Virus record (IMG/VR): IMGVR_UViG_2541047905_000021
Strand: one strand, 5' to 3'
From: a virus
Lineage: Duplodnaviria > Heunggongvirae > Uroviricota > Caudoviricetes
DNA: 29,596 bases
The position numbers were made by a program, and so were the translations under genes. Under the pieces are notes generated by a model. That model ran no database searches and was not told the DNA's origin. It worked only from the letters and a program-made list of their open reading frames with translations. The first letter of the stretch is position 1; every line of letters starts with the position of its first letter. Shown here one piece after another: positions 3,526-7,908 of this stretch.

Positions 3526-5791
3526 AGCCTCCGGGCGTTTTGTCCCTCCGTCAACATTTGCTGCAGGTACCGGTAAGACGTTTACCGGTGCTTATGCATG
3601 GAACGCGCCACGCGAGGCCGTCGGGCGCGAAAGACCCCTTACACGTGACGAGATGCGTCAGGTGCAAGGTGTTTTATCCACGATTAACCGCCTGCCTTAC
3701 TTTTTGCGCTCGCTGTTTACTTCACGCTATGACTACATCCGGCGCAATAAAAGCCCGCTACACGGGTTTTATTTCCTCACATCCACTTTTCAGCGTCGTT
3801 TATGGCCGCGTATTGAGCGCGTTAATCAGCGCCATGAAATGAATACCGACGCGTCGTTGCTGTTTCTGGCAGAGCGTGACCATTATGCGCGCCTGCCTGG
3901 AATGAATGACAAGGAGCTGAAAAAGTTTGCCGCCCGTATCTCATCGCAGCTTTTCATGATGTATGAGGAACTCTGCGATGCCTGGGTGGATGCGCATGGC
4001 GAAAAAGAATCGCTGTTTACGGATGAGGCGCAGGCTCACCTGTATGGTCATGTTGCTGGCGCTGCACGTGCTTTCAATATTTCCCCGCTTTTCTGGAAAA
4101 AATACCGTAAAGGACAGATGACCACGAGGCAGGCATATTCTGCCATTGCCCGCCTGTTTAACGATGAGTGGTGGACTCATCAGCTTAAAGGCCAGCGTAT
4201 GCGCTGGCATGAGGCGTTACTGATTGCTGTCGGGGAGGTCAATAAAGACCGTTCACCTTATGCCAGTAAACATGCCATTCGTGATGTGCGTGCGCGCCGC
4301 CAGGCAAATCTGGAATTTCTTAAATCGTGTGACCTTGAAAACAGGGAAACCGGCGAGCGCATCGACCTTATCAGTAAGGTGATGGGCAGTATTTCTAATC
4401 CTGAAATTCGCCGGATGGAGCTGATGAACACCATCGCCGGTATTGAGCGTTACGCCGCCGCAGAGGGTGATGTGGGGATGTTTATCACGCTTACCGCGCC
4501 GTCAAAGTATCACCCGACACGTCAGGTTGGAAAAGGCGAAAATAAAACCGTCCAGCTTAATCACGGCTGGAATGATGAGGCATTTAATCCAAAGGATGCG
4601 CAGCGTTATCTCTGCCGTATCTGGAGCCTGATGCGCACGGCATTCAAGGATAATGATTTACAGGTCTACGGTTTGCGAGTCGTCGAGCCACACCACGACG
4701 GAACGCCGCACTGGCATATGATGCTTTTTTGTAATCCACGCCAGCGTAACCAGATTATCGAAATCATGCGTCGCTATGCGCTCAAAGAGGATGGCGACGA
4801 AAGAGGAGCCGCGCGAAACCGTTTTCAGGCAAAACACCTTAACCGGGGCGGTGCTGCGGGATATATCGCGAAATACATTTCAAAAAATATCGACGGCTAT
4901 GCACTGGATGGTCAGCTCGATAACGATACCGGCAGACCGCTGAAAGATACTGCGGCGGCTGTTACCGCATGGGCGTCAACGTGGCGCATCCCGCAATTTA
5001 AAACGGTTGGCCTGCCGACAATGGGAGCTTACCGTGAGCTACGTAAATTGCCTCGCGGCGTCAGCATTGCTGATGAATTTGACGAACGCGTGGAGGCTGC
5101 ACGCGCCGCCGCAGACAGTGGCGATTTTGCGCTGTATATCAGCGCGCAGGGCGGGGCAAATGTCCCGCGCGATTGTCAGACTGTCAGGGTTGCCCGTAGC
5201 CCGTCGGATGACGTTAACGAGTACGAGGAAGAAGTCGAGAGAGTGGTCGGCATTTACGCGCCGCATCTCGGCGCGCGTCATATTCATATCACCAGAACGA
5301 CGGACTGGCGCATTGTGCCGAAAGTTCCGGTCGTTGAGCCTTTGACTTTAAAAAGCGGCATCGCCGCGCCTCGGAGTCCTGTCAATAACTGTGGAAAGCT
5401 CACTGGTGGTGATACTTCGTTACCGGCTCCCACACCCTCTGAGCACGCCGTAGCAGTGCTTAATCTGGTTGATGACGGTGTCATCGAATGGAGTGACCCG
5501 GAGGTCGTGAGGACGCTCAGGGATGCATTAAAACACGGCCTGAAAACACCAAATCGTCAGCAAAGAAACGGAAGCCCGTTAAAACCACATGAAATAGCAC
5601 CGTCGGCCAGACTGACCCGGTCGGAACGATTGCAAATTACCCGTATCCGCGTTGACCTCGCTCAGAACGGTATCAGGCCGCAACGATGGGAGCTTGAGGC
5701 GCTGGCGCGTGGCGCGACCGTAAATTATGACGGGAAAAAATTCACGTATCCGGTTGCTGATGAGTGGCCGGGGTTCTCGTTACCCATTTGA
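3515..5791 (+). CDS. A: Replication initiation protein A (HUH rolling-circle endonuclease)
   Basis: Large ORF with HUH motif HWHMMLF (about 4709-4729) and paired-tyrosine active-site motif YIAKYISK (about 4861-4884). The track start at 3473 is a TTG; the first ATG is 3515 (759 aa, close to P2 gpA). Confidence 0.9.
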   Translation: MAVKASGRFVPPSTFAAGTGKTFTGAYAWNAPREAVGRERPLTRDEMRQVQGVLSTINRLPYFLRSLFTSRYDYIRRNKSPLHGFYFLTSTFQRRLWPRIERVNQRHEMNTDASLLFLAERDHYARLPGMNDKELKKFAARISSQLFMMYEELCDAWVDAHGEKESLFTDEAQAHLYGHVAGAARAFNISPLFWKKYRKGQMTTRQAYSAIARLFNDEWWTHQLKGQRMRWHEALLIAVGEVNKDRSPYASKHAIRDVRARRQANLEFLKSCDLENRETGERIDLISKVMGSISNPEIRRMELMNTIAGIERYAAAEGDVGMFITLTAPSKYHPTRQVGKGENKTVQLNHGWNDEAFNPKDAQRYLCRIWSLMRTAFKDNDLQVYGLRVVEPHHDGTPHWHMMLFCNPRQRNQIIEIMRRYALKEDGDERGAARNRFQAKHLNRGGAAGYIAKYISKNIDGYALDGQLDNDTGRPLKDTAAAVTAWASTWRIPQFKTVGLPTMGAYRELRKLPRGVSIADEFDERVEAARAAADSGDFALYISAQGGANVPRDCQTVRVARSPSDDVNEYEEEVERVVGIYAPHLGARHIHITRTTDWRIVPKVPVVEPLTLKSGIAAPRSPVNNCGKLTGGDTSLPAPTPSEHAVAVLNLVDDGVIEWSDPEVVRTLRDALKHGLKTPNRQQRNGSPLKPHEIAPSARLTRSERLQITRIRVDLAQNGIRPQRWELEALARGATVNYDGKKFTYPVADEWPGFSLPI

Positions 5792-6051
5792 GTAAAAATA
5801 CAACGTGATTTGATATGGCATTGAATGGCTTATGCGGAGCAGTTATGGGGCAGCAGAAGGTCAATAGCATGCTGAATTAGAAGGCTAAATGCTATTGAGT
5901 GACTAGCATGTCGGTAAGGACAGCCGTTTGATCCTGGTCATAAAAGGCCATCCATTTAGTCTAATAAAATCATTGCGGGTAACCTTATGTCGACGCATAA
6001 TTCGTCTTGAGCGAAGTCTTGTCAGTCTTTCATCGTATTGATGATGGGCGC

Positions 6052-6081
6052 AAAAAAACCACCCTGGCAGGTGGTTTTTTT
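6052..6081. terminator. Bidirectional intrinsic terminator (A-run, CCACC/GGTGG stem, T-run)
   Basis: aaaaaaaCCACCctggcaGGTGGttttttt: 5-bp GC-rich stem flanked by an A7 and a T7 run, so it reads as a terminator on both strands. Confidence 0.7.
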
Positions 6082-6093
6082 GTTTGAAGCATA

Positions 6094-6207
6094 TTAAAGC
6101 ATAATGCTGACATTGATATTACTGACGTTTACTGACAAACCACTCGGACTACCGTTTGGATAGCCAAAGAGGGCCAGAACGAGAATGCAGTAATAGCATT
6201 TCTTCAT
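6094..6207 (-). CDS. Candidate 37-aa small hydrophobic protein, unknown function
   Basis: ATG at 6207 with AGGAGG 4 nt upstream (short spacing); translation MKKCYYCILVLALFGYPNGSPSGLSVNVSNINVSIML; terminator immediately downstream. It is the internal part of the 88-aa track ORF 6094-6360. Confidence 0.3.
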   Translation of the reverse strand: MKKCYYCILVLALFGYPNGSPSGLSVNVSNINVSIML

Positions 6208-6685
6208 ATTGCCTCCTGTAAGTAGAGGGCAACTTCCACCGGTATATGCGCTTCTTAGGTGGAATGACTTTTGAGCGAAGTCTTGCCCTGAAATAATGCT
6301 CTGTTTAAACGCAAAGTGATTTGGCATATCACCGAACAGAGAGCCGGAAAAACACAACATATAGTATGTCGTTGTTTCTAGACATACATTCTATGTTGTG
6401 TAACAAGGGCTTTGCATTAAACATGTTTGAGATTTTATTGATGTAGCTCAAAGTAAAAAACAGAGACTACGGATGATAAGGTCTTGAAAGCAATGTAAAT
6501 TTTTTAAAGTTGCCAATTGCTTAAAAATGTACAGTTGCGGTATGGCGTACTTAAAAAGCTATGCATGCAACAAGTGAATGTTTTTGCATGCGTTGGGGAT
6601 GTCCGTTCAGGCTGCGTGCGGTCAGGACTGGTGCGGATCCATAGTATCTATGCAACTGCATTAAAACCGCCCCGTGAAGCGGGCG

Positions 6686-6704
6686 GGCGAGGCGGGGAAA
6701 GCAC
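6686..6704. other. cos site (19-nt cohesive-end sequence GGCGAGGCGGGGAAAGCAC)
   Basis: Exact match to the P2 cohesive-end sequence as I recall it, in a GC-rich stretch just right of the A locus and left of Q, where cos lies in P2-like prophages. Confidence 0.6.
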
Positions 6705-6844
6705 TGCGCGCTGGCGGTGGTGCTGATTTTATTTTTTCGGCGTCTCAGCGCGTCGTGATGGCGTTTAGATTGTGTGCCGGGGCGTCGGTGTGTCTGCGGG
6801 CTGTTTTGCGTGGAGGTGAGCGTGTGAGGGCGTGATGACGGGGT

Positions 6845-6868
6845 GTAAAAAAGCCGCCCGCAGGCGGC
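6845..6868 (-). terminator. Intrinsic terminator after Q (leftward operon)
   Basis: On the minus strand: GCCGCC-tgcg-GGCGGC hairpin followed by TTTTTT, directly after the Q stop codon. Confidence 0.5.
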
Positions 6869-6873
6869 GATGT

Positions 6874-7908
6874 TCAGCCGTTGTCAGTGTCCAGTGAGTA
6901 GTTTTTAAAGCGGATGACCTCCTGACCGAGCCAGCCGTTTATCTCGCGGATCCTGTCCTGTAGCGGGATAAGCTCATTGCGGACAAAGACCTTTGCCACT
7001 TTCTCAATATCACCCAACGACCCGACGTTCTCCGGCTTGCCGCCCATCAACTGAAAGGGGATGCGGTGCGCGTCCAGCAGGTCAGTGGCGCTGGCTTTTT
7101 TGATATTAAAAAAATCGTCCTTCGTCGCTACTTCACTGAGGGGGATAATTTTAATGCCGTCAGCTTTCCCCTGTGGCGCATAGAGAAACAGATTTTTAAA
7201 GTTGTTGCGGCCTTTCGACTTAACCATGTTTTCGCGAAGCATTTCGATATCGTTGCGATCCTGCACGGCATCGGTGACGTACATGATGTATCCGGCATGT
7301 GCGCCATTTTCGTAATACTTGCGGCGGAACAGCGTGGCCGACTCATTCAGCCAGGCAGAGTTAAGGGCGCTGAGATATTCCGGCAGGCCGTACAGCTCCT
7401 GATTAATATCCGGCTCCAGCAGGTGAAACACGGAGCCGGGCGCGAAAGGTATCGGCTCGTTGAAGGACGGCACCCACCAGTAAACATCCTCCTCCACGCC
7501 ACGGCGGGTATATTTTGCCGGTGAGGTTTCCAGTCTGATGACCTTACCGGTGGTGCTGTAACGCTTTTCCAGAAACGCATTACCGAACACCAGAAAATCC
7601 AGCACAAAGCGGCTGAAATCCTGCTGGGAAAGCCACGGGTGCGGGATAAATGTCGAGGCCAGAATATTGCGTTTGACGTAAATCGGGGAGCTGTGATGCA
7701 CGGCAGCACGCAGGCTTTTTGCCAGACCGGTAAAGCTGATTGGTGGCTCATACCATCTGCCGTTACTGATGCACTCGACATAATCCAGAATGTCACGGCG
7801 GTCGAGTACCGGCACCGGATCACCAAAGGTGAATGCCTCCATTTTCGGGGCGCTGGCGGTCATTGTTTTTGCCGCAGGTTGCGGTGTTTTCCCTTTTTTC
7901 TTGCTCAT
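6874..7908 (-). CDS. Q: Portal protein
   Basis: 344 aa, same length and position as P2 gpQ; start overlaps the P stop (ATGA). Confidence 0.9.
   Translation of the reverse strand: MSKKKGKTPQPAAKTMTASAPKMEAFTFGDPVPVLDRRDILDYVECISNGRWYEPPISFTGLAKSLRAAVHHSSPIYVKRNILASTFIPHPWLSQQDFSRFVLDFLVFGNAFLEKRYSTTGKVIRLETSPAKYTRRGVEEDVYWWVPSFNEPIPFAPGSVFHLLEPDINQELYGLPEYLSALNSAWLNESATLFRRKYYENGAHAGYIMYVTDAVQDRNDIEMLRENMVKSKGRNNFKNLFLYAPQGKADGIKIIPLSEVATKDDFFNIKKASATDLLDAHRIPFQLMGGKPENVGSLGDIEKVAKVFVRNELIPLQDRIREINGWLGQEVIRFKNYSLDTDNG

Follow-up and report, generated by a model that had tools for sequence, protein, structure and literature searches.

A 29,596-nucleotide stretch of viral DNA (IMG/VR record IMGVR_UViG_2541047905_000021; the window hereafter means this whole stretch) comes from a P2-like prophage, and between its A-type replication endonuclease gene and cos we find a conserved ~580-bp module (5928-6507) that, on balance, we read as an undescribed family of type I toxin-antitoxin-like elements, predicted to be gated by NrdR and FNR. 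In the proposed arrangement, a minus-strand messenger RNA (mRNA) of ~330 nt starting at ~6379 would encode a 37-residue peptide with a signal-anchor-like segment, and a convergent small RNA (sRNA), made from its own sigma-70 promoter, would pair with the 5′ untranslated region (5′UTR) of that mRNA and hold down peptide synthesis. FNR sites are predicted upstream of the peptide gene, and a pair of predicted NrdR boxes would cover its -10 element and early transcribed region. The type I reading is drawn from the tiny hydrophobic peptide, the long closed 5′UTR and the dedicated sRNA, whose seed co-evolves with its site in the 5′UTR.

The peptide gene and its predicted antisense RNA

The gap between A and cos displays only one short open reading frame (ORF) led by a Shine-Dalgarno sequence, a minus-strand gene for the 37-residue peptide MKKCYYCILVLALFGYPNGSPSGLSVNVSNINVSIML (ATG at 6207, stop codon ending at 6094), which falls within the small (<60 residues) hydrophobic proteins by which type I toxin-antitoxin systems are recognized. 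In the peptide, a basic N-terminus is followed by a hydrophobic stretch of ~13 residues and then by a conserved C-terminal half of alternating polar and hydrophobic residues. Its hydropathy peaks at 2.5 over residues 4-14, and a single-sequence AlphaFold model of low confidence (predicted local distance difference test score of 60) adds only an N-terminal helix spanning residues 3-14. Substitutions in the ORF are of the coding type: variable sites at the first, second and third codon positions number 3, 0 and 9 among the phage lineages, and 18, 11 and 28 across the 16 distinct 37-codon sequences of the 37-residue subfamily, with the ORF length constant in all 16 peptide variants. We conclude from this pattern that the ORF is coding. 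The Shine-Dalgarno sequence, read as AGGAGG (6212-6217, minus strand) 4 nt before the ATG, takes the form GGAGG or GGAGA in other lineages and GGTGG in one viral contig (L045). No ORF of more than 88 residues was found wholly between A and the portal gene Q, and the 88-residue frame itself (6094-6360), which some databases annotate, was rejected because its extension is open only in the window's lineage, with stop codons elsewhere, and because its start lies inside a predicted NrdR box (Box B, see below); as a homology query, this frame returned only near-identical E. coli entries. The peptide is labeled 'hypothetical protein' in databases (e.g., ECW_m2278). In one E. coli assembly (GCA_046452175.1), it is fused to a 68-residue read-through product with many split phage genes nearby, probably a mark of a frameshift-rich assembly and not of biology.

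The predicted mRNA extends from ~6379 to a terminator shared with the sRNA (6082-6051) and begins with a ~172-nt 5′UTR (6208-6379, minus strand), its start being predicted from the -10 element only. The fold of the whole mRNA is more stable than those of shuffled sequences (z = -4.9), and the 5′UTR carries two conserved elements on the minus strand, a stem-loop (SL1, 6341->6299) with the invariant loop UGCCA[A/G] and a hairpin (H2, 6264->6234). Together, SL1 and H2 show 8 base pairs changed on both sides, compared with 2.7 +/- 1.1 in shuffles, and 95% of their alignment cells pair, compared with at most 50% when the register is slid. In the predicted ensembles of 11 out of 12 lineages the Shine-Dalgarno sequence is mostly paired, and type I toxin mRNAs typically combine a structured 5′UTR with such pairing. 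Two accounts of this pairing were set aside: that sRNA binding frees the anti-Shine-Dalgarno strand is unsupported, as constrained folds in the 12 lineages keep the Shine-Dalgarno sequence mostly paired whether the sRNA target is blocked or not, and its pairing with a UGCUUC element of the 3′UTR, seen in the window's predicted fold, was dropped as it is absent from the plasmid lineages. The SL1 loop (6326-6321, minus strand) is constant in every lineage, even where the stem has altered, and is complementary to the loop CUGGCA of the sRNA terminator (6064-6069, plus strand); the two loops may form a kissing contact ahead of seed pairing.

On the plus strand, the predicted sRNA promoter (5973-6001) consists of a -35 element TTGCGG (5973-5978), a 17-bp spacer and a -10 element CATAAT (5996-6001), followed by GAGCG at 6009. 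CATAAT, the TTG of the -35 element and the 17-bp spacing are invariant across all phage and plasmid lineages, between which the spacer sequence itself is unalignable. The sRNA of ~80 nt (6009-6089, both ends predicted) runs convergent with the peptide gene and comprises a free 5′ seed (6009-6023), a stem-loop (~6025-6049) and a terminator hairpin with its U tract; its fold has a predicted energy of -28.8 kcal/mol (z = -3.8), and the stem-loop is retained through differing sequences with 6 covarying pairs. Both this sRNA and the peptide mRNA are predicted to be transcribed.

Over its first 13-15 nt, the sRNA is the reverse complement of a 5′UTR segment (6285-6271; mRNA sequence CAAGACUUCGCUCAA), the DNA of which forms an exact 15-nt direct repeat (6007-6021 and 6271-6285); by our own estimate the chance of an exact 15-mer pair in ~900 bp is ~4e-4. 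In every lineage, 78-80 nt separate the target from the downstream ATG. For the 3′ half of the target, an unpaired state is predicted. In the phage and Klebsiella lineages both DNA copies read GCAAGACTTCGCTC, and in three separate lineages of the Salmonella-type subfamily, whose peptide has 39 residues, both read GTAAGGCTTTGCTC, which amounts to three coordinated changes that switch pairs on both sides (C-G to U-A, A-U to G-C and C-G to U-A); the covarying positions are 6013, 6017 and 6021 in the seed and 6281, 6277 and 6273 in the target. In the remaining lineages only one copy is altered, always leaving a G·U pair. Over the 15-bp duplex, 99.4% of the cells pair across 11 distinct seed-target combinations, with 3 of the 15 pairs changed on both sides; slid registers pair at most 47%, and none of 500 shuffles reached the covariation score. 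An antisense RNA complementary to the toxin mRNA, as in type I toxin-antitoxin systems, is thus represented here by a promoter, an RNA shape and a covarying duplex of 13-15 nt, and the conservation pattern shows these three features to be under selection, as judged from sequence comparison. RNAalifold additionally proposes a long-range helix between the seed-target region (~6280-6272) and ORF codons ~22-25 (~6141-6131; columns 106-114/249-259 of alignment A5), one pair of which covaries with the seed change; the target sequence may have a third partner in these codons.

At their 3′ ends, the two predicted RNAs share ~40 nt in a bidirectional intrinsic terminator (6051-6082), which has 13-nt arms of 100% complementarity flanked by A7/T7 runs and is probably also the first terminator after A. 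Its sequence is invariant in all lineages save for one loop base (L044) and the length of the A run (three lineages). Some ColE1-type plasmid origins (e.g., L046) have an identical stem-loop, AAAAACCACCTGCCAGGGTGGTTTTT, in their RNA I/RNA II terminator region, a likeness that may stem from common descent or from recombination among small antisense-RNA systems. In Rfam scans, neither the window (E<=1) nor the plasmid and viral copies (gathering scores) gave a family for the module; the weak RNAI and Phe-leader matches are due to the terminator, and ColE1 RNA I (RF00106) was rejected at 24.8 bits against a threshold of 47, the terminator stem-loop being the only part in common. Likewise, among 120 metagenome loci matching the terminator pattern (L047-L166), 98 lack the module seed, nearly all of them from one sequence cluster, and these terminator-only loci were not accepted as module copies, the sequences inspected being ColE1-type origins.

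The promoter of the peptide gene

Upstream of the peptide gene, a segment of the minus strand (6406-6507) shares 78-80% identity with the treC-nrdD intergenic region, which all 5426 E. coli genomes contain, and nrdD is the one E. coli core locus to which the module DNA showed similarity. Sister phage lineages show 94-95% identity to the nrdDG upstream region across 66 nt, and two other contigs, one viral (L045) and one a Salmonella-type metagenome contig (L152), align with nrdDG over ~120 nt, both NrdR boxes included. On these alignments we identify the promoter as a copy, now diverged, of the nrdDG promoter of the host. A candidate distal FNR site, TTGAGctacATCAA (6451->6438, minus strand), matches TTGAT-N4-ATCAA at 9/10 positions and is the sole TTGA[TG]-N4-[AC]TCAA match in the window; a degenerate proximal site, TTAATgcaaAGCCC (6420->6407, minus strand), matches at 6/10 here and at 8-9/10 in the sister and plasmid lineages compared. 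The 31-bp spacing between these candidate FNR sites and the spacing from FNR to the -10 element both equal those of nrdDG. The -10 element TAGAAT (6393->6388, minus strand) lies inside NrdR Box A and is the sole basis for the predicted start at ~6379.

NrdR boxes have been described as two partial palindromes of 16 bp each, set 15-16 bp apart and with six key positions (PMC13584703), and nrdDG itself is FNR-activated and NrdR-repressed, with its NrdR1 box overlapping an FNR site (PMC2892513). Scoring the window with a matrix derived from the six NrdR boxes of E. coli (oligonucleotides of PMC12176259), we recovered a pair of candidate boxes on the minus strand: Box B, ATACTATATGTTGTGT (6352-6367), scores 20.3 bits with 6/6 of the key positions (C4, A6, A8, T9, T11 and G13), and Box A, ACACAACATAGAATGT (6386-6401), 11.2 bits with 4/6. 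They are the two top scores in the 29.6-kb window, Box B scores above all six chromosomal E. coli boxes, and the pair sum of 31.5 compares with a maximum of 19.5 in 200 shuffles. Box pairs recur, with positional turnover, in most other lineages, the linker being 16 bp in the sister phage lineages and L045, 15 bp in two of the three Salmonella-type lineages (L043 and L152; the third, L062, could not be scored) and 26 bp, i.e., with one extra helical turn, in the Klebsiella variicola type. NrdR and FNR are thus predicted to bind at this promoter. Since it is of the nrdDG type, production of the mRNA is expected chiefly in the absence of oxygen and upon release of NrdR from the DNA, that is, when deoxyadenosine triphosphate (dATP) is low relative to ATP. 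The window's lineage differs from its sisters by a 2-bp insertion in the NrdR linker (6386-6367; 18 versus 16 bp) and a weaker proximal FNR site, and its promoter may be differently regulated, or leakier.

A further FNR-like dyad, TTGATcctgGTCAT (5928-5941, plus strand), is centered about -72 to -74 from the predicted sRNA start. A dyad of the form TTGAT/TTGCC-N4-[GA]TCAT occurs upstream of the sRNA promoter at a fixed distance in 12 out of 12 diverged lineages (2 bp closer in one), among which its flanks and N4 vary; FNR is the candidate regulator at this site.

The module at the P2 cargo locus and beyond

The interval in question opens after the stop of A at 5791 (its counterpart in E. coli W is annotated as an A-type replication endonuclease) and is closed by an exact 19-nt match to GGCGAGGCGGGGAAAGCAC at 6686-6704, which we take to be the P2 cohesive end, cos. 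This 19-mer has conserved flanks adjoining the minus-strand gene Q, which ends at 6874, and independently of its recognition the linear P2-like phage record ON146439.1 terminates exactly at window position 6685. The sequence-only reading had described the gap as AT-rich, with one short ORF behind a ribosome-binding site and dense repeats and hairpins, and our measurements agree: alongside the ORF and the 15-nt repeat reported above, the GC content is 0.35-0.44 over 5800-6600 as against 0.50-0.60 in A and Q/P, and 5700-6900 contains 5 terminator-like sites as against 1.2 +/- 1.1 in shuffles, so that repeats and hairpins in the gap exceed chance. Its observation that the position lacks tin/old-type genes was borne out too, as we found no gene of that type or size between A and cos. 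A hairpin or inverted repeat at 5861-5898 was dropped, as it is not retained in sister lineages, and a 30-nt repeat of 70% identity (5796/6307) was set aside as not conserved or not interpretable.

The interval is heterogeneous. The A stop codon is followed by an AT-rich, fast-evolving spacer (5792-5927) with no conserved feature found, then by the conserved module, a variable junction (6508-6560) and the GC-rich cos-flanking packaging region with the 19-nt cohesive end (~6557-6704), which is conserved in other P2-like phages and prophages. Among the phage lineages, 28% of the sites vary in 5792-5974, as against 15% of the third codon positions of A, and 42% in the junction; between them, 5975-6507 varies at 8-21% of sites depending on the feature, the RNA and coding parts at 8-12.5%, as compared with 28-42% in the flanks. 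The earlier proposal of a small undescribed module at this position is supported for 5928-6507, where the sequence points to a hydrophobic peptide gene, an RNA-based partner and regulatory DNA, with the correction that the last ~130 bp are ordinary cos-flanking DNA.

We compared the window with E. coli W, the copy of which is 99.6% identical, the P2DC1 record, Salmonella phage MET_P1_103_31, E. coli M24FEP and 30-odd viral contigs. Throughout this set, the DNA corresponding to 5792-~6555 forms one unit immediately past the stop codon of A and falls into three or four lineages with 85-88% identity. Cargo, where present, occupies one of two places, between the unit and cos (insertion at ~6528-6560, in the variable junction) or between cos and Q (replacing 6710-6895, up to the end of Q), both of which are empty in the window's prophage; the second of these slots sits at the left end of the packaged genome. 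In relatives the first slot holds 1.6-2.7 kb of genes, e.g., an ImmA/IrrE-like protein with a hypothetical protein in M24FEP-type phages; the ImmA/IrrE-type metallopeptidase matches the PADLOC capP and RmrA models and its neighbor has no match (L005 3415-4566, L002 4136-5312 and L003 4137-5288). The second slot holds inserts of ~2-2.4 kb in E. coli W, related contigs and several viral contigs, the one in E. coli W (L001 4919-7237) being a two-gene PD-T4-4 system (component A, E = 2e-112; component B, E = 1e-15). The view that the segment is present instead of cargo must therefore be revised: in relatives the module coexists with cargo, and it is better described as the resident neighbor of two slots that happen to be empty here. 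As the module shows, 'empty' P2 hotspots are not empty, and the hotspot has two insertion points flanking cos.

About 150 of the 5426 E. coli genomes carry the unit, 58 have the empty, contiguous arrangement of the window, and a 701-bp probe that runs from the unit end through the cos flank and cos into the start of Q matches 2162 of the same genomes. From these counts, ~6557-6704 is general P2 packaging DNA and the unit an accessory element, and among P2-named phage genomes none beyond the P2DC1 record (OU784750/NC_070905) matches past the cos part. The module also leaves the phage context. A tblastn search of plasmids with the peptide recovered full-length homologs of 65-68% identity on ~390 large, mostly conjugative Klebsiella plasmids, all unannotated and, where typed, IncFIB/IncFII; DNA searches and a metagenome scan added further lineages, including the 39-residue subfamily on Salmonella IncFIB plasmids, bringing the module overall to ~400 clinical Klebsiella and Salmonella IncF plasmids plus metagenomes. 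The layout is constant over ~600 bp in every lineage: a promoter region, a long 5′UTR, a Shine-Dalgarno sequence, a short ORF, the same terminator and a conserved back-facing promoter. These distributions mark the module as discrete and as occurring outside phages too, and it is therefore not packaging or regulatory DNA conserved across most P2-like phages, the outcome that would have gone against the sequence-only reading. The exact peptide and its closest sister variant are each present on ~1000 contigs of the protein collection. A degenerate CYYCILVLA scan of 185,579 species representatives gave only two chance matches, so that the phage-type motif is absent from every representative genome, and the Salmonella-plasmid version has no match in the E. 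coli genomes at E<=1e-20. On one Klebsiella plasmid (L038), an Rfam match of 45 bits (1569-1656) to AgrB, the antitoxin RNA of dinQ, lies ~850 bp from the module copy, which puts two type I-like loci side by side.

Readings of the module and its relation to known systems

If the type I reading is right, the peptide is probably the toxin and the direction of sRNA control would be negative: pairing would block a ribosome standby or entry site on the 5′UTR or trigger cleavage of the duplex, two routes of repression that we suggest. Such a device could benefit its carrier through, for instance, stress-induced growth arrest, element maintenance or abortive infection. We further posit, tentatively and as a possibility that we hold to be doubtful, a toxin switch placed on a DNA-precursor sensor, in which NrdR would shut small toxin genes on P2-like prophages and IncF plasmids, and a fall of dATP under anaerobic conditions such as the gut would free the peptide and lead to growth arrest or abortive infection. 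Replication stress might cause the fall, as might infection by a lytic phage that drains or reroutes nucleotides.

Several observations weigh against a type I module under this control. The peptide has no match in Pfam, NCBIfam, PHROGs or PADLOC and so joins no known toxin family; its hydrophobic stretch is only ~13 residues long and its C-terminal half is equally conserved, features that would suit a specific interaction in the periplasm or membrane no less than crude membrane damage. All three double changes of the seed fall within one subfamily or clade, so that they might go back to a small number of events, or to gene conversion between the DNA copies, and folding offers no simple sRNA-induced switch of Shine-Dalgarno access. 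At the promoter, the proximal FNR site is degenerate, Box A retains only four of six key positions, the second NrdR box has decayed in the commonest Klebsiella pneumoniae plasmid lineage, and the 18-bp linker of the window's lineage departs from the canonical 15-16 bp (PMC13584703), a spacing on which E. coli NrdR is reported to be more tolerant in vitro (PMC12176259).

Some of these points lead directly to a rather unlikely alternative that still deserves attention, in which the architecture is the same and the peptide is not a toxin. It would be an exported or membrane accessory protein, e.g., an envelope-protein modulator or a superinfection-exclusion factor, made anaerobically at low deoxynucleotide levels and tuned by the sRNA. 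The conservation of the alternating C-terminal half to the same degree as the hydrophobic segment, the short, signal-peptide-like character of the latter and the lack of similarity to any toxin family would suit such a role, as would a locus that is a hotspot for lysogenic conversion and defense (PMC9122126). However, the whole layout is that of type I loci (a tiny ORF, a structured 5′UTR, a mostly paired Shine-Dalgarno sequence and a co-evolving sRNA seed), the module also resides on large conjugative plasmids, and TimP, at 38 residues and with an uncleaved signal sequence, is a type I toxin (PMC7667032).

The remaining alternatives dispense with the peptide as the main product. An NrdR decoy, whose multicopy boxes titrate scarce NrdR and thereby raise host ribonucleotide reductase, with the ORF and sRNA secondary, is improbable in our estimate. 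The score of Box B above every chromosomal E. coli box and the persistence of box pairs through positional turnover speak for it, and to our knowledge P2 encodes no reductase of its own; but a decoy would work without a -10 element, FNR sites spaced as in nrdDG, a coding ORF kept by purifying selection or a co-evolving sRNA, and the commonest Klebsiella plasmid lineage retains the ORF and the sRNA with decayed boxes. We consider it very improbable that the segment is non-functional filler, a recombination scar at a cargo hotspot with a captured piece of the nrdD promoter and a 15-nt repeat left by insertion. It is AT-rich, unannotated in RefSeq genomes and bounded by highly variable junctions on both sides, and its repeats bracket a 264-bp unit; yet its low variability relative to the flanks, the codon-position pattern of selection in the ORF, the promoter hexamers and RNA helices retained where other sequence is unalignable and the joint change of the two repeat copies all tell against a scar. 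Least probable of all is a packaging or replication control required in the P2 life cycle, for which one might cite the position next to cos and the end of the replication gene, and the bidirectional terminator, which probably ends the early operon. The module is carried by far fewer E. coli genomes than match the P2-type cos/Q probe (~150 versus 2162), P2-named phages other than P2DC1 share the cos part only, plasmids carry the module with neither cos nor A, and only ~6557-6704 is common to P2-like phages in general.

On the type I reading, what is new would be the family and its predicted input, the type I toxin-antitoxin design itself being known. We found no paper on the peptide sequences, on NrdR in connection with a prophage or toxin, or on type I systems in P2-like phages. 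If the reading holds, this would be a new, widespread type I family that annotation pipelines skip or label as a hypothetical protein, and a new small RNA/peptide occupant of the P2 defense hotspot. For most type I toxins of the chromosome, functional work has been blocked because no trigger is known (PMC11264685); in the module, the promoter suggests one, anaerobiosis with dATP depletion, which would be a new input for type I systems. The NrdR regulon would then reach beyond reductase genes onto mobile elements, and nucleotide-pool sensing would be tied to toxin activation at an anti-phage locus. As far as we know, NrdR has so far been treated as essentially specific to ribonucleotide reductase operons.

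The known type I families (Hok, Ldr, TisB, ShoB, Ibs, ZorO, DinQ and TimP) gave no sequence match in the four protein collections searched above, and the known type I RNAs (Sok, IstR, OhsC, OrzO, AgrB and ryfA) gave none to the module in the Rfam scans. By analogy, the closest functional parallels appear to be tisB/istR-1, dinQ/agrB and timP/timR. In E. coli, both tisB/istR-1 and dinQ/agrB combine a tiny hydrophobic peptide, a promoter under a stress repressor, a long structured 5′UTR and an sRNA that pairs far upstream of the start codon and not at the ribosome binding site, and the module resembles them in its predicted repressor-controlled promoter, long 5′UTR and separately promoted sRNA directed at a far-upstream 5′UTR site. 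Unlike these LexA-controlled loci, of which tisB carries a conserved LexA site (PMC11264685), the module has NrdR, a dATP/ATP sensor, and FNR as its predicted regulators. Its genes are convergent upon a common terminator and carried by phages and plasmids, whereas tisB/istR-1 and dinQ/agrB are divergent and belong to the core chromosome, and there is no peptide or RNA similarity between them. TimP is a 38-residue inner-membrane toxin with an uncleaved N-terminal Sec-type signal, and a neighboring sRNA pairs with its 5′UTR (PMC7667032). The Salmonella timP/timR pair (ryfA locus) is thus like the module in size, N-terminal segment and 5′UTR-pairing sRNA, but is divergent and chromosomal, with no NrdR/FNR control described and no sequence or Rfam (ryfA) match.

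More distant likenesses concern hok/sok, where the toxin has an N-terminal hydrophobic part and a C-terminal part facing the periplasm, and the primary mRNA is highly folded and translationally closed. The module shares with it the location on large conjugative plasmids and mobile elements, the hydrophobic N-terminus, a C-terminal part predicted to face the periplasm and the folded mRNA; it differs in that its sRNA would address the 5′UTR in trans through a 13-15-nt seed, as against the cis-overlap by which Sok acts on a leader ORF, in lacking Hok homology and in having a regulated nrdDG-type promoter, which hok does not. In SprA1/SprA1AS of Staphylococcus aureus, the RNAs are convergent with a 3′ overlap and the functional pairing occurs in trans through the non-overlapping 5′ domain of the antisense RNA. 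Convergent RNAs, overlapping 3′ ends and pairing by the 5′ part of the antisense RNA recur in the module, the target of which is a 5′UTR site ~80 nt upstream in place of the SprA1 ribosome binding site; the organism and sequences are unrelated.

With the E. coli nrdDG promoter, the module shares the identity in the region of the candidate FNR sites, the spacings of these sites and a predicted pair of 16-bp NrdR boxes around the -10 element (PMC12176259, PMC2892513). It differs in driving a 37-residue ORF and not a reductase, in an upstream box shifted by ~10 bp onto the -10 element, in the linker (18 bp in the window's lineage versus 15) and in the weaker proximal FNR site. The gpA-gpQ neighborhood next to cos is a hotspot of anti-phage systems (PMC9122126, PMC13586616), and between gpA and gpQ of the window we found no recognizable defense protein, the peptide having no PADLOC match. 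The module therefore shares its neighborhood with cargo such as tin, old, PARIS and PD-T4-4, but is not a protein-based defense and coexists with such cargo.

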